DNA of 64,000 nucleotides from Octopus sinensis (lineage: Eukaryota), in assembly GCF_006345805.1 (NCBI RefSeq), contig NC_043014.1:7998001-8062000 (forward strand). The letters are read 5' to 3'. Each line of letters starts with the position of its first letter. Positions within the stretch are counted from its first letter, which is position 1. Shown one piece after another: positions 31,362-63,955 of this stretch. A program made the position numbers and the translations under genes. The notes under the pieces were generated by a model. That model did no database searches. It was not told the DNA's origin and saw nothing but the letters and a program-made list of their open reading frames with translations.

Positions 31362-31366
31362 ATGAG
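31362..31366 (+). CDS. Peroxidase-like gene, coding exon 1 (ATG AG|gtaagt)
   Basis: Consensus donor. Phase 2 joins the G of exon 2 to give M-R ahead of the hydrophobic signal. Confidence 0.65.
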
Positions 31367-31524
31367 GTAAGTCATTGCGATAACATTTTATATATGTTCC
31401 TGTTTGTTTTTTTTTATTGCTTTTAGTCATAGGACTGCAACCATCCTGGGACCTAGTTTACGAAAATGAAGTCGGTCATATCGACCCCTGGCAATACTTT
31501 TAGACTGCTTGTGCTTATTTCTAT

Positions 31525-31770
31525 GCTATACACCTGGACGTCGCCAAGTGGACAGTACCGCAATCAAATCTACTGCATCCTATGTCAGCAACTGTGGAAG
31601 AGTTCAGTCCAAGCTGTGAAGACGTTCCCTGGGGCAGACTGTGGATCTGACCATGAACTTCTGGTTGCCAAGATCAAGATGCGATTGTGCAACGTCAAGC
31701 GACCACCCGCTTGTTAGAAATTTGATATAAACAAGATCGGTCCATCATTTGCCGCTGAGATCAGAAAGGA
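31525..31770 (+). mobile_element. RTE/BovB-like endonuclease fragment
   Basis: LYTWTSPSGQYRNQI.CILCQQLWKSSVQAVKTFPGADCGSDHELLVAKIKMRL. Confidence 0.8.
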
Positions 31771-33355
31771 TTGCTCCGATCTGGCCAGCCCCAAAGGAAA
31801 ATCTAAGCCTTCACAAGCTTCACAAGCTGTTTTACCTGTCTCAGGTATGCTTCGTTGCCGTCCAGAGCGCGCGGGAAGTATTGTGTTGATTTCACCGTCA
31901 TCACAGCATGAAATTGTACAGTACATGTTTCTCTGCTGTTTCAACGACAATTTCCTTCACATTCTCCGACTTTGAACACAGACTTGTGTCACTGTGTGTC
32001 ATCTAAAACTTGACGTTTCGAAGGAGCAACACACGTTCCATCAGAAAGAGACTGGAAAGACATACGGACAGATATAGATTAAGTGACCAGGACAAGGGAA
32101 TTTGCGAGATACGCTTCAGTATCGAAATTCTCACACTGAAGCACTCAGTAGTTCCATTACGGGGCAAGGAACTCACCTCTTATCCAGCATATTTAAGGAG
32201 AAAATACCTGTCACGTAAAGGTAGAAAGAGTTCCACCTGCTTTTGACATCTAGTAGCTGTTGGCCTGTGTAAGTTTGTGTAGCAGTGACACACTCAGTGG
32301 AGTGAAATGGTGGGAAGAAGAGTTTTGTTTTGGAGCAACAGTGGAGATCCATCTCTAGATGAAAGCAGAAAACATAAAGAGGACTCCAGATATTATCTAC
32401 AGGCTCGAGGGCATAGAGTTGCTTATTGCAGATGAGTGCAGAAGGCCCTGTTTTCACTCGTTTGGCACAGCAGATCGCTTAGAATTTTTGCCGTCAAAGA
32501 AAAACGGGAGATAGGCTGCCATAGTATCAACTACAACAGCAGCGTACACCAGTTACTATAGCGACAGTTGAGAGAACAAAAATAGCAGCAGCAGCACCCA
32601 CAGAAATAAATAGCAACAGTAAGGCCGGTGACATCAACAACGACGCCAGTAAATACAGAATTTACAGTTCTGCGAATAGAAGTATGGTTGTGCTGCTGAA
32701 AAATGACCAGACTAAGCGGGAACGATTTTAAGAAGCTCAGTCCCATAGCTTTGTAAAATGCAGAGTTAAAGAATTTGGCCAAGATGCTAGCTAAGAGGTT
32801 GGGACTGCTGAGGAAATGTAGTGTTGTGCTTCAAAACGGGTTTATATTTTTGAATGTGATAAAGTGTAGTGTTAAATTATTATCCTGCTTCCAGCTCCAG
32901 TGTTGCTGCCAGGATTTGAAAAATAGGACAGTTTTCTCTCTTTGTTTTGTTATCTGGGGGAATTTTGAAAAACAAGGGGGTATTCGCGCGGCTTTTAGTG
33001 AACAACTTAAAAACACTTTCCGGAAGTGGTTAAAACGCGAACCGAGCAAGTTTATGTATTAATATTCTTTTTATATGATTGTTTCCTTTTATACAATATC
33101 AAAATAATTTCTGAAGCAGCACCCTTTACTAATTTTATCTACAAGCTACCTCTGATCGGCACTACTCTGAAGTAAAAACAACAGGAATAGAAATGAGCCA
33201 GAAATAATAGGACCTCAGTTCGGTACTTGGAGAAGCCCGTGAATACTGTCCGACAGAGTCGTTTGAAGAGCACAGAAATTGGCTTGCGACAGTCCCCCTG
33301 GTGGACAAGGACTGGGAACAAGGGACAAGCGTCAAGGTGGATGGTATTATCTAAA

Positions 33356-33586
33356 GGCGGCGAGCTGGCAGAAACTTTAGCACGCCGGGCGAAATGCTAA
33401 GCGGCATTTCGTCTGCAGCTACGTTCTGAGTTCAAATTCCGCCGAGGTCGACTTTGCCTTTCATCCTTTCGAGGTCGATTAAATAAGTACCAGGTGCGCA
33501 CTGAGGTCGATATAATCGACTTAATCCGTTTGTCTGTCCTTGTTTGTCCCCTCTGTGTGTAGCCCCTTGTGGGTCGTAAAGAAATA
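33356..33586 (+). mobile_element. Full-length SINE family A with a 13-bp TSD
   Basis: TSD ggtattatctaaa at 33343-33355 and 33587-33599. Confidence 0.9.
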
Positions 33587-34187
33587 GGTATTATCTAAAG
33601 ATGGGCTAAAAGGACGGTCATTTGCTCCCAACGTTCGCTGCTTGGAGGACTGGGCAAGCCGTGGATGAGGTCGTCCCGACATTGATGGTGTGAAAGTCTG
33701 GCCACCATTTGTCAGACATGCTTTTCCACAGCTCATCTCTTTAACAAAACTGCACTCCTGATTCATCCGTAGATGGAGGCAGAGTTCCTGGCATCGAAGA
33801 TTCCATCAGGCACCCTCATCCCTCTGCCAATTAGGAAACGTTCTTGCCTGACGTTCCAGCATGGATTTCACGGAGGAACATCACGGGGATGCTAGAGGGT
33901 TAGTATTAGGTAACAGCGACGACGTCCCTTGGGAAAGCTCTCGGTTTGATGAAAATCAAAGCAGCTGATTTTTCTGGAGAACTTTCGTGCCGGATCCCAT
34001 GGATAATTTTCAGAAATTCCTGATCTCCAAGCAGTAGGAGAGTTGCTGGGTCGGATAAACTCTATAGGCATGGTAGAGCCGTTTTCTGCACCTTTTCCGT
34101 ACTTCATACATTTGTATAATGCTCGAGCATTGTTGATTCGTGGTGTGTTGCCAGACAGCGACTCTCTCGTGCTGGACTCCATCATAC

Positions 34188-34942
34188 CTCTTTCTTTTCA
34201 CCTAACGGGCTAAAACCGAGGGGACAACAAGGACAGACAACGGATTAGTCGATTACATCGACCCCGTGCGTACTGGTACTTAATTTATCGACCCAAGGAT
34301 GAAAGGCAAAGTCGACCTCGGCGGAATTTGAACTCATAACGTCGGCAGACGAAATACCTATTTCTTTACTACCTACAAGGGGCTAAACACAGAGAGGACA
34401 ACAAGGACAGACAAGGGATTAAGTCGATTACATCGACCCCAGTGCGTAACTGGTACTTAATTTATCGACCCCGAAAGGATGAAAGGCAAGTCGACTGGCG
34501 GAATTTGAACTCATAACGTAGCGGCAGACGAAATACTATTCTTACACCTACAAGGGGCTAAACACAGAGAGGACAAACAAGGACAGACAAGGGATTAAGT
34601 CGATTACATCGACCCCAGTGCGTAACTGGACTTAATTATCGACCCCGAAAGGATGAAAGGCAAGTCGACCTCGGCGGAATTTGAACTCATAACGTAGCGG
34701 CAGACGAAATACCTATTCTTTACTACCTACAAGGGGCTAAACACAGAGAGGACAAACAAGGACAGACAAGGGATTAAGTCGATTACATCGACCCCAGTGC
34801 GTAACTGGTACTTAATTTATCGACCCCGAAAGGATGAAAGGCAAAGTCGACCTCGGCGGAATTTGAACTCGGAACGTAACGACAGACGAAATACGGCTAC
34901 GCATTTCGCCCGGCGCGCTAACGATTCTGCCAGCTCGCCGCC
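34188..34942 (-). mobile_element. Head-to-tail tetramer of SINE family A (one head plus three headless ~180-bp units)
   Basis: Junction gacgaaatac(c)tatt at about 34351, 34530 and 34706. Confidence 0.88.
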
Positions 34943-35545
34943 ATCATATAGATTGCCTCGATACTGTCCATTGGATGAGAAGAGATGGTAATTTTCTTTT
35001 GTGGTGAAAGCTTTTTTGTGGTGGACACTTCCCTCTTCCATCAAGTCCTCATCGACTATTTCAAATTCTGTTTGAAAAGGAAGTGTAGCGTTGATTGGGA
35101 GGAGGCCTCACAGTCATTATAAAGATGAGTGGATGTGGTGAGGATGTGATCTGAGTGAGAGGGCCTTTTTACAGCTGGCATTTGTGGGCTGACGGATATG
35201 GAAGCGAGAGGAGCACTATCTATGGTACTCCAGATGAGTAGAGTAGCTCGGAGTTTGAGGGGTTTCTTCGTCGCCCCTAGATGGGTTTTCCTCTCTATTG
35301 TGGATTTTTTGTTATTTCTCATTGTTTTTTTAAATTTTTTGCACGTGTTTTCTATTGTCCTTTACTATTGTATTATCTTAAATGTTTTTGCCACTCTCGT
35401 TGTTAATAAAAATAGCATGACAGTTATTATTTCTTTTTAGAAGTTTTATTATTATTATTATTGTTGTTGTTGTTGTTGTGTTAGTATTATTATTATTATG
35501 TTTTTTGCTTCTTTCTGCAAATTTTCTTCCGTTTCTCGCCGAGTG

Positions 35546-36866: not shown

Positions 36867-36913
36867 GTTGTTTGTTGCATTGATATTGACTGGTATAGTT
36901 GCCATTATTCAAG
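36867..36913 (+). CDS. Peroxidase-like gene exon 2 (signal peptide LFVALILTGIVAIIQ)
   Basis: ttttttctag|G...CAAG|gtaagt, 47 nt, paralogous to 22465-22511. Confidence 0.85.
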
Positions 36914-39107: not shown

Positions 39108-39633
39108 CCTTTAAACGGCAGGAAAAGTTTACATGGATAAGTGTACCAAATGGGCAAAATACAAAAAATTCTTTTTTTATAATTGTAATTTCTTATACTT
39201 ATTTTCATTTTAAATACGTACAAAAACTAGGAAAATGATATTTTAACTCTCTTGGCTAATAGAATATCGACAAAATATCAATAAAATTATTTGAGCATAA
39301 GCTCATTAAAATTTTCTTCATTGTTACTGACAAATGAATGTACGAATGGAGAAAATTCGGTTCAGTTTCTCCAACCAGAGCTAGCTGAAACATCAGTTTC
39401 TTCTCTGATCTCTAGAGTATCATCAGCATCATCATCATCATCATCATTTGATGTAGGAAAAACAGAACAAAACGCTGTATAAATATTCTGCTTGCGACAA
39501 GATTTCTCTCATCGATGAGAAGAACTTACGCTTAAGCGCATTTGACGAAGTAGACATTTGGATGGCAAGTATTTACGGACGTATCCATGTAAAATTTCAA
39601 AAGCATCAGTTGATGACGTCAGCCGTTTAAGGG
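39108..39633 (-). mobile_element. Internally deleted piggyBac element
   Basis: TTAA on both flanks (39104-39107, 39634-39637). Termini CCTTTAAACGGC and GCCGTTTAAGGG. The minus strand encodes an acidic DDDDDDADDTLEIREE stretch like piggyBac transposase N-termini. Confidence 0.75.
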
Positions 39634-39723
39634 TTAAGAAACTTAAATTTTACGAAATAACAATTATATAATAACAACGCTTATATTTTTCTTTTCATTC
39701 GTTCATTTCGACTGGCATTGCAG

Positions 39724-39739
39724 ATTGCCTTGGACAAAA
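39724..39739 (+). CDS. Peroxidase-like gene exon 3 (16-nt micro-exon, DCLGQ)
   Basis: ttgcag|ATTGCCTTGGACAAAA|gtaagt, phase 1 to 2. Flanks are homologous to those of 22905-22923. Confidence 0.8.
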
Positions 39740-40563
39740 GTAAGTAGATTTATGCTAAAACTTCAATATTTATGGTTTGGCAAGTGTCCATAAGAATTCT
39801 ATAACGTGACTTAAGTGAAATGTTTTACATAAAATATTTGCTAAACCTGCGATGCCATATAGTTATACATTTGTATACCGACAATATTGTGTGGATGCTA
39901 AAGGACAAGTATGTCATCTGAATTAAATAGAATGGTCTAACGTAACAGGTTTTCTTAAAATCAGGGCTGACCTTGCACCTAAATTCCTCAAAAAGGTTAA
40001 ATCGTCTAGGTTGGAACACTTTTGCTCATATCTTTTCTGAAGCATTCTCAATCAATGCATTGAATTTTCTTTAAATATTAGAGGCAACGCTGGTAAAATT
40101 TAATCATACTTTTGAGAGACAATTGCACTGTGATAAATAATTTGCAAAATTTTTTGCTGTTTCGGTTCCTGAGCTGAGAACTTCTGATACGGAATATTCT
40201 CAATATCTGACAAGAATTCTAATACATTTCCTGTTTTCTTCTGTTTCTTCTGTATATAATTTGGAGTAACAATTTCGAGACTTTTTCATGGTTGTTTAGC
40301 ACACCTTTCATGTAGGTATCAAACAGCAGATGCATAGTGATCAAAGATGGTCCCAGTTGTTAAAGTATCATTCCCTTCAGCTGACCTGTCAGATATCAAT
40401 GTTGCGAGCGCTAAATCAACAAGATACTTCCAGAGAGTCGCCATCACTCTCGAGTCCTTCGCAGTAAATCTCAATGTGCGTGTGAATATGTAATTGGGAA
40501 TCTTTTCAATATCTGAACAGGTCAGCAGTAACAAAATCAACAACAACAACAACAACAACAACA

Positions 40564-40600
<37 letters not shown>

Positions 40601-40895
40601 ATATATGCTTGGGAGGTGAGTGTGAAACCGCGTGGCTTAGTATTTTGATTGTTGTAAGTTCGCCATTTTGGTTCTCAGATCGGCGGTGCGTTGTGTTCTT
40701 CAGCAGAACACTTCATTTCACTTCATTTAACTTGTCCCAGCCCATTCAGGCGTTAAAGGGATAAGCAAATGACGGACTGGCGTTCCATTAAGGCATAGCC
40801 TTGTGACCTGCCCACCTAACTAGCGCCGAAGCGTCATTTGAAAGCTACAACGTAAGCAAACGCTTTGGAATTATCACTGTATAACAACATCCGAT

Positions 40896-40942
<47 letters not shown>

Positions 40943-40985
40943 CAATGATAAATATCAAAGTGAGTATATACAGTAGCGGTAACAC

Positions 40986-41131
40986 ATCGTGACGTATTTT
41001 TGCCATTTCAATATGGCTAACCCCTAAGGGTGGATGCTAGCTGGAGGAGTGTGTCCTCCTGGGGCTAAAAACTACAGTAGCATCCACCCTTAGGGGTTAG
41101 CCATATTGAAATGGCAAAAATACGTCACGAT
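40986..41131. repeat. MITE-like foldback with about 55-bp perfect arms in TA context
   Basis: atcgtgacgtatttttgccatttcaatatggctaacccctaagggtggatgcta ... tagcatccacccttaggggttagccatattgaaatggcaaaaatacgtcacgat. Confidence 0.8.
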
Positions 41132-41474
41132 ATATATAATATATATATATATATATAGCCACTTCACACAGTTTTTTCTCCCCTTGTTTTTTCTGTGTCC
41201 CTTTCTGTAGAAGAGCGTAGGCTCGAAACGTAAAATTCTTTTTCTATTCCTGAGCGTTATACTAATACATCTATTTGTTTTGTACACCACCTGTCTTCGT
41301 CTTTTGTTTTTTTCGTAAATTCTCCCTATATATATGCGCATACGTATATGTTGTGGATGGGTAAAAGAAAGTGAGGGTTTGCAAGAGTGAATAATGAGTA
41401 ATTGTTTTACTGATACACACGTATATGCAGTACCTTACACGTAGATCTTTTCTACGCCGAGTACTACATTACAC

Positions 41475-41972
41475 ATGTAATGACATGCATAAGATCTGGT
41501 CATCAAATCTAAGTAGAGACTTCAAACTTGAAATATTCAAAGCCACAGTCGAACCAATTCTACTATATGGCTCAGAAACATGGACGTTATCAAAGAAGCT
41601 TGAGAGGCGGTTGGATAGAACCTACACTCGCCTCCTTATGAGAGCTCAAAATCTCTCGTGGAAGCGTCATCCAACCAAAATGCAAATATATGATAAACTA
41701 CCACCTGTGTCATCTCTTGTGAAAGGAAGGAGAGTCCAGTTTGCTGGCAATTGTTGTAGAGCTGAAAAAGAGGTAATTTCTACTCTCCTCCTCTGGAAGC
41801 CATCTACTTGCAATGCCAGAGGGCGCACACTCTCCTACCCTGATGTAATCTCCAGGGATACAGGCATCCAGCAACAGGACCTCCGTAATGCCATGATGGA
41901 CCGTGAAGTCTGGTGTAGCATGGTAAATTCCATTGTCTCGACCACGGTCGAACAATGATGATGATGATGACA
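41475..41972 (+). mobile_element. RTE-clade LINE 3' end with (TGA)n tail
   Basis: VEPILLYGSETWTLSKK, LDRTYTRLL, RRVQFAG. Near-identical copy at 62470-62762. Confidence 0.88.
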
Positions 41973-42134
41973 TTACACATATTGGCTTGCATCGCGAAGT
42001 CTGGGCATTCATTGTTAATTATATACAAAGATATCGAAAATGATATGAATGGGTAATAACTATATAAATTTATTTCGTTTTTGTATTTGGTTTGCAAGAT
42101 TCTTTATGTGAGTTCGTGTGTTGAAACATATTCT

Positions 42135-43147
42135 GTTGTGTCTGGGGAGAGTCATTTTCTTTTTGTGCCTTATAATTTAACACACTCACCAGAAAAATTT
42201 CCACATATTTCTTATTTCTTTATTTTCCACCTATTTCTTATTTTTATTTTCCTAAAATTTTCGTTGCGTCTTGCAACCTTTTCTTGACTCTGTCCGTTAT
42301 TTACACCGCGTTCTTTTTTGTTTGTTTGTGAGCAGGTGTGGGGGTCAGAGAGTGTGTGTGTGTGTGGTGCCTATGCATGTATGTACGCATGTATGTGTGT
42401 ATGTATGTATGCATGTGTATGTATATATATGTGTGTGTGCATCTGTATGTATGTATCCTGTATATCCATTTGCTTACATGTCCGTGTTTGTGTATTTTCT
42501 ATGTATGCGTGTGCTTGTATATGTATGCACCTATGTCTGCTTGTGTGTGCATGTCTGTGTGTGAGTGTGTGTGTTATGCAACTATGTACCATGTTTGTAT
42601 GCATGGATGGATGTGTATCTCTATACGGGTGGATTCGTGTCTCCATATGTGTCCTTGTGTGGAGTAAAGTGTGTGTGTGTGTATATATGATCATGTGTGC
42701 CAGTCTCCATTTGCGTATGTGTGCTTGTCTTGTATATGTATGCACAGAGGTGCATACATGTACAAACACACGCTCTCACACACACATACATAGAAAATAC
42801 ACAAATACGGACATGAAGGCACATGATTATGCAGGATACACACAGTCATACAGATGCGCACACATATATACATATATACATACATACACATGCATACATA
42901 CATACATACATATACACATACATACGTACATGCATGCATAGGCACTCACACACACATTGACTCATACACATGCGCACAAACAAAAAGGAACGCAGTGTAA
43001 ATAACGGACAGAGTCAAGACTATTGAAAAGGTTGCAAGACGCAACGAACATTTTAGGAAAATAAAAATAAGAAATAAGTGGAAATTTTACCAGTGAGTGA
43101 GTTACATTATAAGGCACGAAAAGAAAATGAATCTCCCCAGACACAAC
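42135..43147. repeat. Large imperfect inverted repeat with a microsatellite-like interior
   Basis: tgttgtgtctggggaga.tcattttct...ttgactctgtccgttatttacac is mirrored at 42985-43147. Confidence 0.75.
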
Positions 43148-43225
43148 AGTATATAAATCTAATACACACGAAACTCTTGAATTTTTTCCTGCTTTTCATT
43201 TGAATAATTATTCTCAATTTTTCAG

Positions 43226-43374
43226 TTCACCCGACTGCCCTTTTGCCCCTGCGCCAACATGTCACTCAACAGTTACCTACTATCAAGAAAATGGACAATG
43301 TAATAATATAGACAATGGGTTCGCAGGCAGCGCAAACTCGAGCTACGAACGGTTTCTGATGGCCATGAAGCCCG
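43226..43374 (+). CDS. Peroxidase-like gene exon 4
   Basis: C..C...YYQENGQCNNI.N.FAGSANSSYERFL matches the YRTxDGxCNN..WG...F.RLLP motif. ag|...|gtacgt, 149 nt. Confidence 0.9.
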
Positions 43375-43436
43375 GTACGTAAGATAATGGTTTCTATTGT
43401 ATTTATAAACATCCATAGTACATAAATACATACCTA

Positions 43437-43515
<79 letters not shown>

Positions 43516-43520
<5 letters not shown>

Positions 43521-43729
43521 GAAATGAAGAAAATGCTGACAAAATAATTTAAGTAATTTAAGTAATTTAATTAGGTGAAAGCCCTTTTTACCGGTTGCGC
43601 ATTTGTTATGCTTATCAAAAGATATATTGATAAGCATAACAAATGCGCAACCGGTAAAAAGGGCTTTCACCTAATTAAATTACTTAAATTACTTAAATTA
43701 TTTTGTCAGCATTTTCTTCATTTCCTTTT
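43516..43729. repeat. Perfect palindrome with about 103-bp arms and an 8-nt loop, in TA runs
   Basis: aaaaggaaatgaagaaaatgctg...cttatcaa|aagatata|ttgataag...cagcattttcttcatttcctttt. Confidence 0.92.
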
Positions 43730-43765
43730 TTATATATCACAACTCGTGTTCCACATCTCCTTTTT

Positions 43766-43819
<54 letters not shown>

Positions 43820-43829
<10 letters not shown>

Positions 43830-44208
43830 TCAAGTTGTGCGTCTGTCTCCTACGATTTAGATTCCTAGCTACTCCCACATTTTGCGGTGCAGTGTAACCA
43901 AAAGCGGGTATCTTATAGTCGTGATTCATATCGAGCCCTTCTGGGTATTAGCGCGTGTCTACGATGAGTCTACGATTTTAAAAATAATTTACCATCATTT
44001 TTTCCATTTTAATGCATTTTTTCGCTATTATATAAGGGAAGTAACTCTCTAAAAATGTCTACGATGAGTCAACGATTTAAAAAAAATTTACCATCTTTTT
44101 TTCCATTTTTAATGCATTTTTTTTGCTATTTTTTGGCTATAACTCTCTAAAAATGCTTATATAGTTATTTCCCTTACAAACCCGAGCAACTCCGGGCGAT
44201 AATGCTAG
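43820..44208 (+). mobile_element. Non-autonomous Helitron-like element
   Basis: 3' cccgagcaactccgggcgataatgCTAG|t, internal tandem duplication, inverted relative at 53582-53886. Confidence 0.65.
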
Positions 44209-45131
44209 TATATATATATATATATATATGGCTGTATATATTTATGCGTTTGTATCTCTGTCCCCCGCCCCTATCACTTGACAAACGATGTTGGTTTGTT
44301 ATATTCACATAACTTAGCGGCTCGGCCTATGGAACCGATAGAATAAGTATTCGGCAAACAAACACTAAGTTCTGGAGAAAGTTTATCCGTTTTTACCAGT
44401 ATGAAGGTGAAGCGAGTTATGTCGGTATTTGGTGGGGGGGGGAAGGTGATGGGAATGCAGCAGGGAATGATAGTTGTATGTGTGGTGGTGTTGGACTTAC
44501 GTTTTTTTTTATTCATTTTGCAAATGTTAAGGATGGATTGTTCCTTCCTTTGTTTGATTTCATTCACGGCCTGAATATCTTCAATAAATTCTGAAGTCAA
44601 CAGATCATCGGGTACTGTTGGTGTTTTTTGACTAAATTGATGAGTGATACATCAATTAACATACCCTGACAACTATAATCGCCGTACCGGATGAGCTGTT
44701 GACTTCAGGAGGGAATGTCTTGCTCAAGAGCACAACGCGCCATGCAGTCGAACAATGACGTCTGTCATTTCTACTACCAGCGTATGTCCTGAAATTTAGG
44801 AGGAGGAAGATACTCGATAACATCGATCTCCGTTCTCCTCTGTTACTTACTTTATCGACCCTGAAGGATGAAAAGCAAAGTCTTCCTCGGTGGTATCTGA
44901 ACTCAGAATGCATTTTCAAATTTTGGCGCAAAACTAGCAATTTCGATTGCATCAACCGCCGGTGCTCAACTGGTAATTATTTCAATAACCCCGAAAGGAT
45001 GAAAAGAAGAGTCGACTTCGGTGCAATTTGAACGTAAAGAATGACGAACTACTGCTAAGCATTTTCTCTAACGTGCTAATGCTTCTGCTAGCTCACCACC
45101 TTAATGTTAATAACAACAACAATTATTATTA

Positions 45132-45162
<31 letters not shown>

Positions 45163-45164
45163 CA

Positions 45165-45558
45165 TTTGAAATTTTTGCCACAAGGGCAGCTTGGGAGAAG
45201 TGGGGAAGAGTCGATTACATCGACCCCAGTGCGTAACTGGTACTTAATTTATCGACCCCGAAAGGATGAAAGGCAAAGTCGACTTCGGTGGAATTTGAAC
45301 TCACAACGTAACGGCAGACGAAATACCTATTTCTTTATTACCCACAAGGGGCCAAACATAGAGGGGACAAACAAGGACAGACATAGGTATTAAGTCGAAT
45401 ACATCGACCCCAGTGCGTAACTGGTACTTAATTTATCGACCCCGAAATGATGAAAGGCAAAGTCGACCTCGGCGGAATTTGAACTCACAACGTAACGGCA
45501 GACGAAATACCGCTAAGCATTTCGCCAGACGCGCTAACGATTTTGCCAGCTCGCCGCC
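45165..45558 (-). mobile_element. SINE family A dimer
   Basis: Same gacgaaatacctatttc junction at about 45320. Confidence 0.85.
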
Positions 45559-45670
45559 ATAATAATAATGATACTGATGATAATAATTAGAAAAACCTGA
45601 ACACAATGAAAGACATGGATATTTACTTTTGTCTATTTTGATAAATTTATTGTATATCACTTCCTTTTAG

Positions 45671-45850
45671 GTGGAGACGGGGCCATTCCATACAAGAATT
45701 ATTTCGGAAACATACTACCTTCTCCTAGGGAAGTAAGCAAAACCATTTTCCCTTGTGACAGTGACAATGTATCGCAGAGAACAAACCTTTTTACAATTTT
45801 CGGAACACTCCTTAAGTTTGATATGTTTCAAACTAGCCGAGAAAGTACAG
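45671..45850 (+). CDS. Peroxidase-like gene exon 5 (distal haem region)
   Basis: LPSPREVS motif. FTIFGTLLKFDMF aligns with FMQWGQxLDHDL. 180 nt, phase 1/1. Not in the ORF track. Confidence 0.9.
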
Positions 45851-45976: not shown

Positions 45977-46012
<36 letters not shown>

Positions 46013-49327: not shown

Positions 49328-49346
49328 ATGCTCAATGCTGCGAAAG
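49328..49346 (+). CDS. Peroxidase-like gene exon 6 (19-nt micro-exon, DAQCCE)
   Basis: Long pyrimidine tract, then cag|ATGCTCAATGCTGCGAAAG|gtaatt. Supplies the required phase 1 to 2 change and the CC typical of invertebrate peroxidases. Confidence 0.8.
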
Positions 49347-49576: not shown

Positions 49577-49637
<61 letters not shown>

Positions 49638-49744
49638 CGTGTATATATATATGCGTGTATGTGTGCGTGTGGGTGTGTATACACACACATTTGTGTCTGT
49701 GTGTGTTTATATTTGCATACTCTTTTATTCTTTTACTTGTTTCA

Positions 49745-50116
49745 GTCAGTTACGACGACGAGAATTCCGGTTGATTCGAATCAACGGAACAGCCTGCTCG
49801 TGAAATTAACGTGTAAGTGGCTGAGCACTCCACAGACACGTGTACCCTTAACGTAGTTCTCGGGGATATTCAGCGTGACACAGAGAGTGACAAGGCCGGC
49901 CCTTTGAAATACAGGTACAACAGAAACAGGAAGTAAGAGTGAGAGAAAGTTGTGGTGAAAGAGTACAGCAGGGATCACCACCATCCCCTGCCGGAGACTC
50001 GTGGAGCTTTAGGTGTTTTCGCTCAATAAACACTCACAACGCCCGGTCTGGGAATCGAAACCACGATCCTATGACCGCGAGTCCGCTGCCCTAACCACTG
50101 GGCCATTGCGCCTCCA
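49745..50116 (-). mobile_element. SINE family D
   Basis: Head gtggaggcgcaatggcccagtggttagggcagcggac. Confidence 0.8.
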
Positions 50117-50489
50117 CGTGTACTACATCTGTACGAAGTGAAAATATAATCATATACATCTGCCAGTCAATAAATACTAAAAGAACAACAGAGATTTTTT
50201 GGTTTTGGTTCAAATATTGGCTTTGTGTAACATAGCATGAACCTTATATTTATTGTTGAGCAGAGGAAATCCGACATGACAACGTCTGTACATTTCTTAA
50301 AAGCATAGCGACGTAACTGAAGTGTAAGTTTACAGTTAGGAATCGAAGTCACGAAGTAGATTTGGTACACTAGTTGCTTACATTTTATTGAATATCTTGT
50401 TATACAGTTTTTACTGTTTTATCTTTCCATATTTATTTCTTTTCTATTTGTGTCAATAAAAACACTTTTTTATAGAAGTACATTCGTTT

Positions 50490-51095
50490 TGTTCAATATG
50501 GTTAATTGCCGGTCATTCGGAATGCTCACAGCAGCCATATTCCTACCGCTTTATTTCACCCTGGTGAGACCCATATTGGAGTACGGGATTCAAGCCTCTT
50601 CTCCTTATCTCCTCAAAGACATACATCATCTCGAAAGAGTCCAGAAGCTGGCTGGCTACCCGCATGGTACTTGGTCTCAAGCATTTGTCTTATGAAGAAA
50701 GGCTGAAGACGCTCGACCTTTATTCTCTAGGAAAACGACGACGCCGTGGTGATCTCATTCTTGCTCACAACATCATAAGCGGAAAGTGTAACCTCTCGAA
50801 AGAGCTGTTCTTCACTCCTGCTCCAGAACGTCGACAGCGGGGTCACTCTGAAAAGCTCTATCTGCGACGATTTCATCTCAATCGAAGGAGAGGGGATTTC
50901 TCCGTCCGGGTTGCGGATCCGTGGAATAAGCTGCCGGACGAGATAGTGAAGATGCCGACGACCGCTCGGTTCAAAGTCTCCCTTGACCACAAATGGTCTG
51001 AACTCTTTGCATGAACACCACCCTGTACATAACACCATGTCCCCCTACATGGCCTTTGCATTTTGCTTTTTGAGCCAAAAAATTAACTTACTTAC
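50490..51095 (+). mobile_element. CR1-type LINE 3' end
   Basis: LVRPILEYG, LERVQK, LSYEERLK.LDLYSL..RRRRGDLI, RGHSEKL, WNKLP, short tandem tail. Confidence 0.88.
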
Positions 51096-51166
51096 ATTAG
51101 ACTGATCAAAAGCATGACTTACTCTCAGGTTTTAAAAGTAAATGCAACTAGACTTTCAGATCGAGG

Positions 51167-51604
51167 GGATCTTTTCGGTTTGAACGGCAGTTTTTCTAGC
51201 GGTGTCATATGAAATTGTCACCCATAATTATGACCCTATAATCGATCTATTGCATTTCAATCTCTTTTAGGGTTGGAGTTAGTTAGGGTTAGGGTTAGAG
51301 TTAGGGGAGGGGGAAGGGTATCTTTTTTTCTTCACAAATATAAATAAACCCTATCTGTTTCTTAAACGAGGGACATATTCATACGGCACAGAATGCTTTT
51401 TAACTCAGTAGACGTCACTGATTGGTTGAAATTGCAGAAATTGAAGAAAACAAAACAACAAATATCTTACAAACTATAGAATTTTCTCAATAAAGCCAAG
51501 AGAAAAAGATGTTTTATAAACACATTCTACCAGTATACGAAGTTTAAAACTTTTTAGTTACCTAGAAATTATGTTAAAAACTGCCGTTCAAACCGAAAAG
51601 ATCC
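51167..51604. mobile_element. MITE with 29-bp TIRs and an 8-bp TSD (Merlin-like by its termini)
   Basis: TIR GGATCTTTTCGGTTTGAACGGCAGTTTTT. TSD GATCGAGG at 51159-51166 and 51605-51612. Internal TTAGGG-like run. Confidence 0.88.
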
Positions 51605-51704
51605 GATCGAGGTTCTGACCTAGCAATGTCCAAAACACATACCGCTCAAAAAATTAGTCTTAAATATTTCGAATTTTTTATAACGTTTTCTTTGAATATT
51701 TCAG

Positions 51705-51814
51705 CTGTCTAGGTATTGTTGTCAATGCGACAACTGATCCACGTATTACCAATGGCTGCAATAACTGTATGTCATACAAAAAGCCAATTCTACAATATGA
51801 TGTCAACTGCACGG
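51705..51814 (+). CDS. Peroxidase-like gene exon 7
   Basis: CLGIVV...DPRI....CMSYKKP aligns with CFPI.IP..DP....CM.F.RS. 110 nt, phase 2 to 1. Confidence 0.85.
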
Positions 51815-52309
51815 GTAATAATTTAAAAGCTTCCTTTCCTTTATTTATAAAAATTATTTCAAGTGTAATAACAAAGATAGCTGAGCATTGAATTAAATTC
51901 ATTAAAAATTACCATAGAAAACTTTGCTATGCGGTCATACGTGGGCTCATGCAAAGGTGTAGTTCTTCTGGAATAGATAAATTAGTACAAATCTTTCTAC
52001 CTGAATGCGATAACAGTTGTTCAAAATTAACCAGAATCCTGTTATCTATCGGTTTGCAAAGTTGATATTCTTTTGATAAATGACCCCGACTATAAATGCA
52101 TATGGTTTGTTTTGTGCTGGAAACAGTGCTTTGACCATCCAAGTAACCAAGTCGTTCTTTAGAAATTTAACCTCATTATAAACGTCACAATATTTTTAAT
52201 TTCTATCGATAACTGTCAAAAGCTTACTCTTTCATTATACGGAAATAATTTCGTAATGATATTTTATTGTCACATTTTCTTATTTTTCCATCGTTTCTTA
52301 TCTTTTAAG

Positions 52310-52402
52310 GCGGTAAGATTCAAGGCAATAACGACGTCACTCACGTAATTGATGCCTCTTTTATGTATTCTACACCTGATTATAGCGGCACTTTAAGTAA
52401 CG
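52310..52402 (+). CDS. Peroxidase-like gene exon 8 (Ca2+-binding loop)
   Basis: QGNNDVTHVIDASFMYS aligns with EQIN.LTSFVDAS.VYGS. 93 nt, phase 1/1. Confidence 0.9.
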
Positions 52403-52466
52403 GTAAGTAACAGCACTTTCCATTGATTACAAAGGCCCATGTAAATAAATCGATATATCTGTCTAA

Positions 52467-52687
52467 GGCGGCGAGCTGGCAGGATCGTTAGCACGCCGGG
52501 CAAAATGCTTAGCAGTATTTCGTCTGCCGCTACGTTCTGAGTTCAAATTCCGCCGAGGTCAACTTTGCCTTTCATCCTTTCGGGATCGATTAAATAAGTA
52601 CCAGTTATGCACTGGGGTCGATGTAATCAACTTAATCCGTTTGTCTGTCCCCTCTATGTTTAGCCCCTTGTGGGTAATAAAGAAACA
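52467..52687 (+). mobile_element. SINE family A with a 14-bp TSD
   Basis: TSD gatatatctgtcta on both sides. Confidence 0.88.
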
Positions 52688-52993
52688 GATATATCTGTCT
52701 ATCTAGATATCTATCTGTCTACCTATCTGTCTTTCTACCTATCTATCTTTCTATCTATCTATAAATTTCTGATTACCAAGTGTATATGTACACGAGATAT
52801 CAATGGAGATAGGTGTGATTGCTGTAATAGCAATAAAACAGACGGTCATTTCATAAGCTTGTACTACTGATTTGAAGTTTTCCACATAAATATACTCAAG
52901 GGTGACTGGATCCAAGACTTCTTCAGTTTAAATACGCACTCTGGAAATAATATATGAAAGGTGTTCACTTACTTTTCTACTTTCAAATTTCAG

Positions 52994-53050
52994 GCAAGTT
53001 TGACTTGACTGGAGGATTTCTTTCAAAAACAGACGACAAATTTTCAGGAG
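52994..53050 (+). CDS. Peroxidase-like gene exon 9
   Basis: tttcag|GKFDLTGGFLSKTDDKFSG|gtaggt, 57 nt, phase 1/1. Occupies the G.L...LLP...CF.AG region. Confidence 0.75.
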
Positions 53051-53581
53051 GTAGGTTATTCATTATTAGATTATTGTCATTGTTAAGTCTATATATGCGT
53101 ATGTGTGGGTGTGTGCGTGGGTGTGCGTGTATGTATGTGTGGATGGATGTATGTATGCATGTATGTATCTTTTATCTTTTACTTGTTTCAGGCATTAAAC
53201 TGAAACAAGTAAAAGAGCAGCGTCTGGGAGGATTTTAGTCCAGCCGATTGAGCCTGGTGTTTTTTTTTTTTTTTGTGGTACGCATTCTATCGGGCTCCTT
53301 TGCGAAACAGCTAGGTTACAGAGATGCAAACACACCAACGCTGGATGTGAAGCGATGGAGGGAGATAAACATGCAGGGACACACACATATAAAGGCATGC
53401 ACACATACACACACATACATATATGCGGTCTGATCAATAAGCATCCGAACTTTTGCTAAAGCATTCAGAGTGAAGTCGCTTGGCAAAGATTGACCTTGAT
53501 CTCTGTTCATTTTGAATATTTATCTGATGTTACTGTAGCGCATGGGTTACTCTAACGTTTTCAAAGTATCTTTATACGATA

Positions 53582-53886
53582 CCAGCAGTATCGCCCGGTG
53601 TTGCTCGAGTTTGTAAGGGAAATAACTATATAAGAATTTTTAGAGAGTTACTTCCCTTATATAACCCGAGCAAAAATCATTAAAAATGCGGAAAAATGAT
53701 GGTAATTTTTTTTAAATCGTAGACTCATCCTAGACGCGCGCTAATACCCAGAAGGGCTCGATATGAATGACGACTATAAGATACCTGCTTTTGGTTAAAC
53801 TCCATCGCAAAATGTGGGAGTAGTTAGGAATCTAAATCGGAGGAGACAGAGTCTCACACACACAACTTCAATTTTATATATAAAGA
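53582..53886 (-). mobile_element. Non-autonomous Helitron-like element
   Basis: Reverse-complement relative of 43820-44208, with 5' TC at 53886. Confidence 0.65.
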
Positions 53887-55294
53887 TATTTTCAACAATA
53901 TCTAGGATACCTTGTTATGTTCTATACTTGTTTCGTAGAATAAGCGAGATAGAGAGACAATTGATGCAAGCATATGGGGTTTGGAAAGTAGACTTTCTAC
54001 GTTCAGTTGTTAAATATAAACCCTTCTTTTGGTTAAACGCTATTCCTATACCAGTAGGAAACATGTTTATATGCTGCTGTTTTCAGCATCGTAAAAGTTT
54101 CAGGCATAGATTTTTAGATCTTTCACAGAGAAGTTACGAATCAGATCAATGTCTATTACTGCTTTAACACTACTATATAGCCTTTGGCTTTTCATAACAA
54201 AAATGGTATCGTGGATTTAGCGCCAAGAAAATAAATAGATGCACATACGGTTGCCTTGAAATATTCTCATTGAAATATTTATAACATCACACGCAACCAT
54301 TTCAGTTTCATTTACAAGAGTGAGGAATGTGGACAAAGTCTTCGTGAAACTTTCTGTGGCAGTATCTAAGACAGCAGATATTTTTGCAATCTATAGCCAT
54401 GACTGGATAAAACGCTTTTCTATAATGAAGCCACAGTTGTTCTGCGATGTTTTCTACTCCAAATATTAAAGCTTTTTTCACCAAAAGTTGTTTGGTGCAT
54501 CCTAATACACACTTCTTTTCATCATTATGTTCGTCTACTGATTTCCTGATTTTGGTGATGATCATGAAGATAGCTTGTTCGCAGTTTGCACACAATATAA
54601 GACAGGCTAGGAGCCTATTCTTCTACGTAAAACAGTGATTTCGTTCTTTATTCATTTATATTGTTTGTCTTTAAATGAGACGACACCAAGTGGCGTCTCG
54701 AAAGTGGGATTCAGTTCCAATTTATAGCCAATTTTCTTTGATTAACTTGTTAATGCTCTTGTTAATGGTATGTTTATACCATCTCTTATCAATTATCTAT
54801 TCTTTACTAAATCAATGAATTAGAACACTGTTGGTTCTGAAAGCTACACGAAGCACAATATAGTGCAAGTCATTGCAGTGGTCCCTGAAGACATAAATTG
54901 TTATGTATAGCCCAGTTTCGATTTTTCATTGTAGACATTACTTTTTTTTTGGCAATTAATACTCATCAAAATCACTATTTGTCCACAAAATTTCGACAAC
55001 TCACTATAGAACTTAATAAAAGTAGAAATAAACGTGTTTATATTCTAAATGGAACGAGAGTTATGAAGGTCAAGACAACGCTTGTTCCCTTATATTCTAC
55101 TTTCGTTCAATTACTTTCAGAACTGAATTCAAAATTTGTTAGACGAACACTTATGCATTTCACTCGTCTGTGACTGAATAAATGATGGTAATTAATATTC
55201 TAAATTTGACGTAGTAGGTTTTACTCATGCATATCGGTTCATTAAGAAAATTGATGTTGTGTTTAATAAAACATATCTCTCCTATATCTTGTAG

Positions 55295-55715
55295 TTTCAG
55301 ATCCAATCAACAAAAACCCCTTGGTGATGGCAATATATCATATTTTCCTCCGTGAACACAATAGGATAGTCGATAAAATGACTGTATTTGGTCATGATGA
55401 TCCCCTGGGAGCAGCAAAGAAGTTGATGATTGGAATATTACAGCATATTACTTACAACGAATATTTACCACTGCTGATTGGTGAAAACTTATCAGCTGGT
55501 GCTTACGATGACAAGCTCTTACCTATCATTTATAATTCATTTTCGGTTGCCTATGAATTAGCATTGGCTTCAATGTCGAGAGAAAATGTACAAACTTCTG
55601 ACGGTAAGAAAAAATTGAACGAAATGCTGAACGACGCAACACTTGTGGACACAGAACCCGAGTTGAAAGGTATCATCTCAGGAATGCTGATGGAAGCCAG
55701 TTTATATATCAACAG
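55295..55715 (+). CDS. Peroxidase-like gene exon 10 (core, proximal haem region)
   Basis: IFLREHNRI, QHITYNEYLPLLIG, YD...P.I.NSFSVA. In-frame alternative acceptor at 55301. Confidence 0.95.
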
Positions 55716-56109
55716 GTAAATCTATACTATTTCACCAACATCCAATTTTCCGAATTCAAATTCTAGCAGAGTACACCGTTCTTTTATTTCACCGTCTATT
55801 AAATAAATACCACTTTGAATTCATGTGTCTATGTATGTAGGTAAATATGTATGTGTATATGTTTTTGCGTGTGTCTCATTGATTATCTGTCAAATTGTTA
55901 TAATGTTACTGGATGACATCATGGTTCGATCACTGGTCAAAATATTTTGTTCGTTTACGCCGTTTTACGTTCTATCATAGAAAACTTTACATGTTACATT
56001 TCGTGGGGTGATAAAATAAACAGTAAACCAAGATAAATTTAATTGTTATATGTCTCCTCCAGAACGTGTGGTGTCTTACCAATCATAGAAATTATGTGTC
56101 TAATCATAG

Positions 56110-57021
56110 AAATTATAAGCCAGGGATGTTGAACCGTAAAAACATCCAGTGAGTTTTACTCATACATATCGAAACTAATCGATTTGATATAAGTATACAT
56201 TAATCTGACTATATCGCATGTGCGAAAATATATACCCAAAATCTCTCAATAATTATTAATCCACTCAACAGCACAATACTTAATTATCATTAAATCAAGG
56301 TAAGAGATAAAGGATTTACACTACACTAACAGCATATATATATATTGTTACGAATTTATTATTTTCTTTTCCGATATTTTTGTTTCTGTTTATTTTTTCC
56401 AGCGCAGTACCCTGTAGTTTTCGGGACAATTGCAAACATTCCGATATAGTGTCAGTCCTAACCCAAGACTCGCGTTTTTTGTCAATAACACCCTACATAG
56501 TTTGGATAGCATTGTTGAATGGAACTACAGTCGGCGATTTTCCAGATCTGCTCTTCCACGACAACTCGGAAATCACCAAGCTTAGCAATTTGTACAAGTG
56601 AGTGGAAATTGTTGTTTTTTACATGTTTAAACCGTTATAGTTTTTAAAAATACTAGTGAAACTGTTGTAACTTACCAGTTACAACATTTTTTTTTATATT
56701 CCCAAGAGAAAACAAATTCTGATTTCAACTACCCGTTGTGTTTAAACTATAATTAAGGAAACCTTATAATAGAGTTGAAAAATTATAAGCCAGGGATGTT
56801 GAACCGTAAAAACATCCAGTTAGTTTTACTCATACATATCGAAACTAATCGATTTGATATAAGTATACATTAATCTGACTATATCGCATGTGCGAAAATA
56901 TATACCCAAATTCTCTCAATAATTATTAATCCACTCAACAGCACAATACTTAATTATCATTAAATCAAGGTAAGAGATAGCGGATTTACACTACACTAAC
57001 AACATATATATACATATTGTT
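56110..57021. repeat. Near-identical ~240-bp direct repeats (56110-56349 and 56780-57021) bracketing exon 11
   Basis: aattataagccagggatgttgaacc...ctacactaaca.catatata occurs twice, 670 bp apart. Confidence 0.92.
56403..56597 (+). CDS. Peroxidase-like gene exon 11
   Basis: DIVSVLTQDSRFLSITPYIVW aligns with DL.ALNMQRSRDHGLPGYN.W. Also F.DL and L..LY. 195 nt, phase 2/2. Confidence 0.9.
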
Positions 57022-57443
57022 CTCAAACCGGCAGTAAATTATTTAGGCAGTATTTACATCCGGCGATTTAGCGCACCAGAATGAGGGCATTTGAATGTAA
57101 CTGTGAATCTAATCGGCTGTACCGTTCGTCTCTGTTCAACATCGTGTGAATTTTGCCGTTCGGTTCGACAAATTATATTCTGACGATTCGAAAATACTTA
57201 TGTAAGTAAAATTACATAATCTATTACCGATTAAACAATTGTATAGAGTTAATCTATTTTTTCGTTATTTTTCATTTGTCCTGCTCGCTTACATTCTTGG
57301 CGTGTTGAATTAATTCTTGAGAATAATTCTTTGGTGGCGGATCTATATCTAGTGTTAGAGCGTCCACATAGTGGACTCTCTCTTATTGTTTTGTATGTAT
57401 ATATATATATATGTATGTTTATAAGAATGTTTCAATTTTACAG

Positions 57444-57604
57444 ATACGTCTATGACATTGACTTCCTAAGCGGCGCTTTCACAGAGACCGTTGCAAATGA
57501 TAAACCAGCTGGACCAACACTATTGTTACTTTTGAGAAGTCAATTCGCTTTATTACGAAACTCTGACAGGTTTTTCTTTGAAAATCCCACTGTATTCAAA
57601 GAAA
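57444..57604 (+). CDS. Peroxidase-like gene exon 12
   Basis: DIDFLSGAFTE, GPT, QF.LLRNSDRFFFENP align with DIDLW.GG..E, GP, QF..LR.GDRFW.EN. Confidence 0.95.
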
Positions 57605-57964
57605 GTAAGTTATAAGATGATTTATCATTATTGCTTGACTTTACTTAATTTTCTGCTGCTATTTACGACATTGGGCAAATGTATACAAAACCTTTGTTAA
57701 TGAGACGTTTTGATAATCCCGTTTCGATGTGTCATCGTCTTGTCATTCTCTTTTTATATATTTTTCTTTCACGTTACACTAACATTTTCTGATACAGATG
57801 TCCAATTTTGAAATATAATTATAAAATTCCACGAAAGAAGGCGTCGTTGATACTATAGTTGGCATTATATTATTAGTCTTTTGTGACTGATTCCATGAAG
57901 ATAACAGATAAATCACAGATTCCCGATAGAAATTGAACTGAAAAGATCATAATAAATAACTATA

Positions 57965-58512
57965 TATTTATTTATTACCCAACGAGGGCTAGACATAGGG
58001 GGGGGAAACAAGGACAGACAAAGAGATTGAGTCGAGTATATCGACCCCAGTGCGTAACTGGTACTTATTTAATCGACCCCGACAGGATGAAAGGCAAATT
58101 TGATCTCGGCGGAATATGAACTCAGAACACATCGGCAGACGAAATACCTATTTCTTTATTACCCACAAGGGGCTAAACACAGAGGGGACAAACAAGGACA
58201 GACATAGGTATTAAGTCGAGTACATCGACCCCAGTGCGTAACTGGTACTTAATTTATCGACCCCGAAAGGATGAAAGGCAAAGTCGACCTCGGCGGAATT
58301 TGAACCCAGAACGTAACGGCAGACGAAATACGGCTACGCATTTCGCCGGCGTTTTAACGTTTCTGCCAGCTCGCCGCCTTTCTGCCAGCTCGCCGCCTTT
58401 CTGCCAGCTCGCCGCCTTTCTGCCAGCTCGCCGCCTTATCCGCCTTATCGGCAGACGAAATACCGCAACGCATTTCGTTCGCCGTGCTAACGATTCTGCC
58501 AGTTCGCCGCCC
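57965..58512 (-). mobile_element. SINE family A dimer plus four 19-bp tandem copies of the SINE 5' end
   Basis: Junction at 58141. (ttctgccagctcgccgcct)x4 at 58361-58437. Confidence 0.85.
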
Positions 58513-62469: not shown

Positions 62470-62762
62470 CCAAAATGCAAATATATGGGAAACTACCACC
62501 TGTGTCATCTCTTGTGAAAGGTAGGAGAATCCAGTTTGCTGGACATTGTTGTAGAGCTGAAAAAGAGGTAATTTCTACTCTCCTCCTCTGGAAGCCATCT
62601 ACCCGCAATACCAAAGGGCGCACACTCTCCTACCCTGATGTAATCTCCAGGGATACAGGCATCCAGCAACAGGACCTCCGTAATGCCATGATGGACCGTG
62701 AAGTCTGGCGTAGCATGGTAAATTCCATTGTCTCGACCACGGTCGTACAATGATGATGATGA
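62470..62762 (+). mobile_element. RTE-clade LINE 3' end, 5'-truncated
   Basis: Near-identical to 41670-41972, with a (TGA)n tail. Confidence 0.88.
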
Positions 62763-63357
62763 CAACTACTACCACTACTAGTATCTTTATGGTCTAGGTT
62801 CATAATCCACCATGGTCTACTTTGCCTCTCTTTCTTTAAGAGTTGATAAAAGAAGTTCCTGTCAAGTACTGGGATCAAAGTAATCGACTATCCTGCCTCC
62901 CAAAGTGCTAAGTCTTGTGTCTACAGTTGAAAGAATTATTAACTGCTATTTAAACATTTCCAGGGTTTCAGTAAAAAGATAAGGTGACATATTTACAGAG
63001 ACGGGATTTGTAGTTGAATGAACTGATCTTCATACGTGCATTCAATTCTCTTTTTTTTTTAGAGGATAGATGGAATAATGGATTCAGGCACGACTTAATT
63101 CCAGAACGTAAGAGAAAGTAACATAAACATTAGATATTGCTGCTATTATAATGAATATAAATGATCTTGTTTGATTAAATAAAATAGAAAGAGTTTTAAT
63201 ACTGCTAAATTAGTGTCATCATTGTTTTGTTTGAAATTGCAGGAACTGGGGTGAAAAAGAATTTGCCACTTGTCTTTCTAAGTTTTCTTTTTGGTCTCTA
63301 TTTCATTTTTGTATGTAATATTTGTGTATTCTGTAATGATATGAATTATACTCTCTC

Positions 63358-63575
63358 TCTTTTACTCTTTTACTTGTTTCAGTCATTTGACTGCGGCCAT
63401 GCTGGAGCACCGCCTTTAATCGAGCAACTCGACCCCGGGACTTATTCTTTGTAAGCCCAGTACTTATTCTATCGGTCTCTTAGGCCGAACCACTAAGTGA
63501 AGGGGACATAAACACACCAGCATCGGTTGTCAAGCAATGCTAGGGGACAAACACAGACACACAAACATACATGCT

Positions 63576-63623
<48 letters not shown>

Positions 63624-63784
63624 TACGACGGGCTTCTTTCAGTTTCTGTCTACCAAATCCACTCACAAGGCTTTGGTCGGCCCGAGGCTATAGTAGAAGA
63701 CACTTGCCCAAGGTGCCACGCAGTGGGACTGAACCCGGAACCATGTGGTTGGTAGACAAGCTACTTACCACACGGCCACTCCTG
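63358..63784 (-). mobile_element. SINE family B
   Basis: Same structure as the 23286 copy. Confidence 0.85.
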
Positions 63785-63855
63785 TAGTTTTTTTTTTTCT
63801 TTGTAATTCGATGTTCTACAATTTCTTTTCACCTTTATTTCATTTCATATTTCAG

Positions 63856-63955
63856 AGCAACTTCAAGAGATAAAAAAAGTGACTATGGCTAATCTCTTGT
63901 GTCGTAACATAGATAGCTTAGGTACAGTGAAAACAAATGCTTTTGATATGAATTC
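63856..63955 (+). CDS. Peroxidase-like gene exon 13 (gene continues past the window)
   Basis: QLQEIKKVTMANLLCRN...V..NAF aligns with QL.EIRK.SLAR.ICDN...VQ..AF. ttcag|...|gtaagt, no stop codon yet. Confidence 0.92.

Follow-up and report, generated by a model that had tools for sequence, protein, structure and literature searches.

A peroxidase-fold gene of octopods whose product lacks the residues on both sides of the haem site

What is a peroxidase gene kept for once its product has lost the residues on both sides of the haem site? The question is raised by gene A, a gene on the forward strand of the stretch of Octopus sinensis DNA analysed here (contig NC_043014.1, positions 7,998,001 to 8,062,000; 64,000 nucleotides, called the window below). 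An original prediction, made from the letters alone, had proposed that gene A encodes an intact, secreted, non-enzymatic protein with a haem-peroxidase fold. The analyses reported here support that reading; the role of the protein may be defence binding, structure or the carriage of a ligand.

Gene A is the O. sinensis locus that bears the automatic name "peroxidase-like", as had been expected of annotation pipelines (XP_036366834.1; P0037; A0A7E6FGH2). By eye, the core of P0037 is the window protein letter for letter and the ends differ (96.5% of 487 columns). A query with exon 10 found an O. vulgaris protein at 88%, whose cluster includes P0037 and CAI9737356.1; the latter (P0038, 625 amino acids) is the O. 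vulgaris orthologue. All 13 exons have AG/GT borders and join in phase, exactly as first drawn, into 1553 nt, or 517 codons, with no stop. The claim that the gene is intact stands as far as the window reaches, since the frame is open throughout; the model itself is incomplete, as gene A runs off the end of the window, with a GT donor at 63956. P0038 has about 110 residues more, and gene A beyond 63955 is known only via this orthologue. The exons are as follows, with canonical residues in the myeloperoxidase (MPO) numbering taken over from the original prediction and with the evidence for each given last.

31362..31366, + strand: exon 1, coding part from the ATG; O. vulgaris P0038 has the same start.
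36867..36913, + strand: exon 2, which encodes the hydrophobic core of the putative signal peptide; agrees with P0038, and a loose end of run X5 matches its 3' end.
39724..39739, + strand: exon 3, a 16-nt micro-exon; matching residues in paralogue P0040.
43226..43374, + strand: exon 4, where the PF03098 domain begins, with C27, C35 and C48; domain match, contig joints.
45671..45850, + strand: exon 5, with Q91>T (45805-45807), D94>K (45814-45816), distal H95>F (45817-45819), the retained Ca2+ ligand D123 (45820-45822) and one mucus peptide; alignment, contig joints, proteome table.
49328..49346, + strand: exon 6, a 19-nt micro-exon with C136 and C137; contig joints.
51705..51814, + strand: exon 7, with C140, C157 and C160; contig joints.
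52310..52402, + strand: exon 8, with the retained Ca2+ ligands T186, D190 and S192 (52339-52359); alignment, contig joints.
52994..53050, + strand: exon 9, with the second mucus peptide; contig joints, proteome table.
55295..55715, + strand: exon 10, with R239>P (55303-55305), E242>K (55312-55314), R333>L (55558-55560), proximal H336>A (55567-55569) and a fast-changing patch at residues 249-264; alignment, contig joints, comparison with P0038.
56403..56597, + strand: exon 11, with the clade-specific C370 and C376, N421>L (56458-56460) and R424>D (56467-56469); alignment, contig joints.
57444..57604, + strand: exon 12; PF03098 match, contig joints.
63856..63955, + strand: exon 13, where the PF03098 domain ends; the GT donor is next and the gene goes on past the window; P0038, domain match.

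Alignment to PF03098, a check that had been suggested, bears out homology to the peroxidase-cyclooxygenase superfamily. Six of the eight exon translations scanned match the profile in the right order, exon 10 at E 7.8e-15 and two weakly at E 0.015 and 0.09; exons 10 and 12 exceed the cut-off, and exons 7 and 8 gave no match. P0038 scores 232.8 bits over profile positions 3-530, above the gathering score, and its ESM Atlas model (predicted TM-score, pTM, 0.83) has TM-scores of 0.70-0.80 to peroxidase clusters and 0.80 to a mollusc cluster, both sides of each comparison being predicted structures. Among its 14 cysteines gene A retains those of the peroxidase scaffold, and all four ligands (D123, T186, D190 and S192) of the Ca2+-binding motif of families 1-3 are present, which the original prediction had overlooked. 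The six N-glycosylation sequons were found as described, and so was the hydrophobic N-terminus, a putative signal peptide and the only segment with a 19-residue hydropathy above 1.6.

The active site was tabulated from an alignment of 150 rows, 134 of which are comparison peroxidases of 450-1000 amino acids among the proteins fetched. The window protein has T118 at Q91 (canonical residue in 112/134 comparison proteins), K121 at D94 (60/134), F122 at the distal H95 (122/134), P229 at the distal R239 (132/134), K232 at E242 (53/134), L314 at R333 (121/134), A317 at the proximal H336 (117/134), L385 at N421 (104/134) and D388 at R424 (123/134). Profile alignments give the same residues as the earlier hand mapping of Q>T, D>K, H>F, R>P, H>A, N>L and R>D; R333>L is a further loss that it had missed. 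The replacement of the haem-ester residues D94 and E242 is real but weak evidence, given how few of the comparison proteins have them, and E242>K holds for the window and is not general, as P0038 keeps Glu there. Only the final Asp of the G-Q-x-x-D-H-D signature is left, P229 and K232 stand in place of the distal R-x-x-E signature, and A317 and L385 in place of the proximal His and Asn pair. An hhalign comparison of the octopus and canonical profiles gives the same register with a probability of 100, and an HMMER alignment to LPO moves the proximal helix by one position, still without a His. No proximal His was found in either register, which leaves the claimed loss standing: there is none between residues 276 and 378 of the window protein, and H378 is Tyr in P0038.

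Arg333 and Arg424 contact the haem propionate. Because these two arginines, the proximal His and its Asn partner are all gone, with Asp in place of R424, the gene A protein very probably binds no haem. The roles of the Q, D, H, R and E residues, the proximal His and Asn, the Ca2+ Asp and the signature are those given in the available part of PMC4420034. We also considered adenosine-to-inosine recoding as a means of restoring His or Arg and rejected it: the codons TTT, CCA and GCT are not convertible by A>G, and recoding is further disfavoured as all three exon-5 differences of runs X1 and X2 lie outside 45805-45819.

Contigs of four coded runs (X1, X2, X5 and X9) were compared with positions 39600-57700 at 88% likeness. 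In X2 and X5, exons 4-5-6-7-8-9-10-11-12 are joined at the predicted GT..AG sites at all eight joints, and X1 contigs carry at least six of the eight; X9 contigs carry none at this likeness. The joint-bearing contigs of X1, X2 and X5 have depths of 62-834. That the four runs are RNA is our guess; they are not recorded as such, and splicing rests on the joints. Because eight GT..AG introns are removed exactly, as splicing would remove them, we read these contigs as spliced transcripts of gene A, which answers the call for a transcript check. Joints 1-2, 3-4 and 12-13 are supported by relatives and not by contigs (exons 1, 2 and 13 by P0038, exon 3 by P0040); the loose end of an X5 contig at 39722 matches the end of exon 2. 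The 16-nt exon 3 is missing from both NCBI models of gene A, and the original 5' model is better than theirs. We note that codon 108 (45775-45777) varies three ways, reading Gln in the window, Met in X1 and X2, and Lys in X5 and P0038.

The protein is present in arm-skin mucus by mass spectrometry, skin being one of the sites that had been named for it. In about the first half of the rows of Table S1 of PMC10138644, which covers mucus scraped from O. vulgaris arm skin (5,937 peptide-spectrum matches, PSMs, in all), A0A7E6FGH2 has at least six PSMs, from two peptides assigned to it alone, each in raw files F6, F7 and F8. The same part of the table holds at least one PSM (one peptide) of a paralogue, D, together with peptides from a peroxidase of canonical type; the portion of the main text available names peroxidases once, as an enzyme class. 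The ink proteome supplement had no match to five accessions and four motifs among the matches listed. The salivary-gland supplement PMC7693380 had none even for the word "peroxidase" and is uninformative, and the available part of the argonaut eggcase preprint makes general mentions of peroxidase only. Two candidates from elsewhere were set aside: a salivary "peroxidase-like" transcript of P. digueti, which could not be linked to gene A from the part of its source available, and the O. maya oviducal "chorion peroxidase", which is another gene, as its primer has no match in the window at three mismatches and it reads canonical-like.

In the searches run, close relatives of gene A were found only in O. 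sinensis, O. vulgaris, O. bimaculoides and Argonauta hians, where they sit on one large contig per species, one unplaced fragment excepted; the O. vulgaris cluster has the consecutive accessions CAI9737353-57. In a quick tree of 38 rows, 15 form one clade with a Shimodaira-Hasegawa-like approximate likelihood ratio (SH-aLRT) of 100, and O. bimaculoides P0039 is sister to the window gene plus P0038 (support 100). Position R333 is Leu or Met in all 13 clade rows scored (Leu in 12), position R424 is Asp in 12/12 covered rows, position 421 is L, V, I or A in 13/13, the new cysteines 370 and 376 are in 13/13, and F95 is in six of the eight rows covered. As the losses at R333 and R424 are clade-wide, the haem-propionate contacts were likely lost first, at the base of the clade. 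The proximal His is kept in one of the 13 rows, P0060 (paralogue D), which also has the distal His, Arg and Glu.

Paralogue D (P0060/P0204; O. sinensis XP_036366591 and XP_029647656) lacks Q91, D94, R333, N421 and R424 and may be an atypical enzyme; in P0062, its counterpart in Argonauta, the proximal site is occupied by Tyr. The O. vulgaris model P0002 (CAI9737357.1) is a fusion of two neighbouring paralogues, D and C. P0039 has no sequons. Three Logan proteins with a peroxidase and a TSP1-like part (P0064, P0078 and P0215) have lost the proximal His and kept the distal pair. On a long branch, P0078 joins the octopod clade, so the family may extend beyond octopods.

Gene A has changed quickly. 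The window protein and P0038 differ at 35/512 residues, about four times the protein divergence of paralogues B (8/486), C (2/254) and D (10/448) from O. vulgaris (pooled 20/1188, p 2e-7 against gene A; counts omit mis-modelled stretches), and seven of its changes fall within 16 residues (249-264, p 0.007). If X5 encodes the P0038 residues, at least 29/32 of its exon differences are non-synonymous: exons 4, 5, 10 and 11 have 2, 4, 22 and 4 letter differences, and the P0038 residues require at least 2, 4, 19 and 4. The ratio of non-synonymous to synonymous rates (omega) for X5 is 2.8-3.9, p 0.047-0.009, for kappa 1-4. The X5 synonymous rate of 1.4% is consistent with the 2.5-Myr split and 1.22% heterozygosity given in the available part of PMC10700109. 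Exons of X5 differ at 32/944 positions vs 2/557 for introns (p 4e-5, two low-depth intron pieces); the corresponding difference in X1 is not significant (8/1105 vs 0/408, p 0.12).

For X9, six mostly intronic pieces differ from the window at 222/3212 positions, or 6.9% (range 4.6-11.1%), and three of the piece ends reach exactly 30 nt into an exon (7 or 10), the pattern expected of a splice branch. Exons 4, 5, 11, 12 and most of 10 are without deep cover in X9 at 88%, which is weak evidence alone. The P0039 sequence implies no fewer than 0.225 changes per non-synonymous site, a ratio of 3.7 to neutral divergence. Scaffold-conserved sites are spared against P0039, as 21/127 (16.5%) of them differ vs 151/307 (49%) of the others (p 1e-10). 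Gene A is not decaying, its frame being open in three species, and it probably combines a constrained fold with a surface changing faster than neutral. The earlier suggestion of selection on the protein is right for the conserved scaffold and incomplete for the rest, where selection is not simply purifying and change is apparently faster than neutral.

Taken together, we propose, at a little less than an even chance, that the gene A protein binds microbes, their glycans or secreted inhibitors at the skin surface as a haem-free, non-enzymatic protein. A microbial partner is put first because of the surface location and the rapid change. The protein would be secreted via its N-terminal hydrophobic segment; its fold would be stabilised by Ca2+ and disulfides, the new C370-C376 pair included; a TSP1-like tail would act as a docking or adhesion module; and the non-core positions would be under positive selection exerted by an external partner, with microbes the simplest candidate. 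In the history that this entails, a mollusc peroxidase+TSP1 gene would have lost Arg333 and Arg424 at the root of the octopod clade and then undergone tandem duplication, with His/Arg/His retained by paralogue D and lost by the other paralogues. The tail is read from P0038, whose extra part comprises the end of the peroxidase fold, then a cysteine/Trp/Arg module, then helices; hhalign pairs this module with mollusc peroxidase tails that match TSP_1 below the cut-off (P0083, 18 of 21.6 bits), and its TSP1-like nature is unproven.

A number of observations weigh against this proposal. The putative microbial role is deduced from where the protein is found and how fast it changes. RGD and KGD motifs are absent from the window protein, P0038 and P0039. 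Pfam does not detect TSP_1 (PF00090) in P0038, and the Atlas TM-scores of its tail to TSP_1 proteins reach only 0.39-0.45 (criterion 0.5). The spectral evidence is modest, with six PSMs in the roughly 2,900 rows listed in the available part of the mucus table; the scraped mucus also contains cytoskeletal and ribosomal proteins; and the main expression site may lie elsewhere, the run tissues being coded. Paralogue E, which is probably broken, diverges as fast (12/148), and near-neutral change would also fit. The omega test on this short branch, itself marginal, takes X5 to equal P0038, and the sparing of conserved sites against P0038 is not significant (7/140 vs 28/355, p 0.33). The link between X9 and P0039 is drawn from pattern alone, and the X9 intron pieces were pre-selected by the 88% filter, so that neutral divergence is underestimated; at 15% the ratio would be 1.6.

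A different, unlikely reading is that the protein is a non-enzymatic structural or adhesive part of the mucus gel or sucker cuticle, cross-linked by co-secreted active peroxidases. It would suit a glycosylated, cysteine-rich protein with 27 Tyr in P0038 and a TSP1-like tail, found in the same mucus table (in the part available) as a canonical-type peroxidase and paralogue D. The spectral count is low for a bulk structural protein, however, repeats and low-complexity tracts are absent, faster-than-neutral change would not be expected of one, and P0039 is devoid of sequons.

We regard as quite improbable that the protein carries a lipophilic skin cue in its emptied haem pocket for self, species or mate recognition by suckers. 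Pocket residues have gone from polar to hydrophobic and are kept so across paralogues (positions 95, 333 and 421), the protein is present on arm skin, and species divergence is fast; Nesher, in 2014, reportedly found that a skin chemical blocks sucker attachment. Simple core packing would give hydrophobic replacements too, and the putative pocket may be collapsed. The fuller form of this idea, an octopod family of secreted skin proteins whose hydrophobic emptied pocket reads a lipophilic cue and is tuned per paralogue or species by positive selection, is improbable to the same degree; if true, it would open self or species recognition between skin and sucker to molecular study.

A reproductive role in the spermatophore, oviducal cement or egg coat, under sexual selection and with incidental detection in mucus, would match the fast rate pattern typical of reproductive proteins and the finding of the gene in only some runs of a species, which is not tissue evidence. 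It sits poorly with detection in all three arm-scraping raw files seen, and the O. maya oviducal primer, without a window match, belongs to a canonical-like protein; we consider this role very unlikely. More doubtful still is residual or new chemistry, by which an atypical ligand would bind haem or another cofactor, or a dead subunit would regulate D or an active peroxidase. The fold and Ca2+ site are intact, D388, C370 and C376 are new and invariant, and paralogue D, with its His/Arg/His, shares the mucus; against this, the proximal helix has no His, Asp occupies the propionate-binding Arg site, and H378 is Tyr in the orthologue. That gene A, though expressed, is under relaxed selection and turning into a pseudogene, as the broken-looking neighbour E with its similar divergence and the marginal omega test might suggest, is the least credible reading, given an open frame in three species, spliced contigs of high depth, a detected protein, strong sparing of scaffold sites in the comparison with P0039, and an exon divergence that exceeds intron divergence in X5 and apparently X9.

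Upstream of gene A the window holds part of that neighbour and an assembly gap.

19663..24454, + strand: paralogue E 5' exons, with an exon-1-like end at 19667 and exons at 22465-22511, 22905-22923 and 24319-24454.
26248..26347, no strand: 100-N assembly gap between the paralogue E 5' exons and gene A.

Paralogue E has GTG where gene A has ATG, and its frame is broken near the end of its exon 4; it is likely a pseudogene or an assembly error, and the gap may hide the rest of it. The O. vulgaris model CAI9737354 uses another frame for the E exons, and the O. sinensis 3' part lies on an unplaced 13.5-kb scaffold (P0061). By eye, fragments like the reverse transcriptase/endonuclease of long interspersed elements (LINE) and Tc1/mariner-type transposase occur at 38-832, 12224-14721, 9107-9592, 41398-41958 and 6320-6994; a repeat of about 180-230 nt resembling short interspersed elements (SINE) has many copies, in tandem at 34207-34894 and 57965-58331.

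Returning to the proposed haem-free skin-surface binder, its standing among known peroxidases can be given as follows. Peroxidase domains without the proximal His occur in PXDNL and DBLOX, and also in P0046 of a sawfly and the Logan proteins P0064, P0078 and P0215, where the His is replaced as in gene A. It is absent in 16/134 comparison rows, of which six are cluster mates of P0064/P0078 and some may be misaligned. Most other His-less domains keep the distal His and Arg, whereas the octopod clade loses both sides and is tandemly expanded. The DUOX peroxidase-homology domain (family 7) is similar in that its proximal His is absent, its peroxidase activity lost and its function obscure, according to the available part of PMC4420034. 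DUOX is a membrane NADPH oxidase, whereas gene A stands alone, is putatively secreted and represents a separate loss; it is closer to LPO (E 3e-37) than to DUOX (E 2e-9), and P0038 has PF03098 only and a hydrophobic segment only at its N-terminus, with no DUOX-type transmembrane segment, EF hands or NADPH-oxidase domain. Peroxinectins (family 3) share the invertebrate peroxidase fold and, in the same part of PMC4420034, have adhesion and immune roles, and so provide a precedent for such roles of the fold; they are active and carry KGD, in contrast to gene A, which is without catalytic residues and without RGD or KGD. The mollusc "chorion peroxidase-like" or peroxinectin-type proteins (P0083 of Sinanodonta and P0044 of Ylistrum) share the PF03098 fold, the cysteine pattern and the Ca2+ site, and their C-terminal W..W/RxR/Cys module aligns with the octopus tail; they are about 25-28% identical to gene A and retain His95, Arg239, Arg333, His336, Asn421 and Arg424.

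In the literature covered, which includes few subscription papers, a description of an inactive, stand-alone, secreted and tandem octopus peroxidase family was not found. Databases and proteomic papers count the cluster as peroxidases, under names such as "peroxidase-like", "mlt-7-like" and "chorion peroxidase-like"; of the five paralogues in O. sinensis/O. vulgaris, at least four are ruled out as classical peroxidases by their residues. The apparently positively selected arm-mucus protein is a candidate player in the skin immunity or the touch-taste recognition of octopuses. The graded series from canonical peroxidases through the Arg-less, His-keeping paralogue D to the fully stripped A, B, C and E probes what the fold does without haem, the same question that DUOX poses. 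Pseudo-peroxidase domains are already known from DUOX; what appears to be new here is an octopod family losing both sides of the site.

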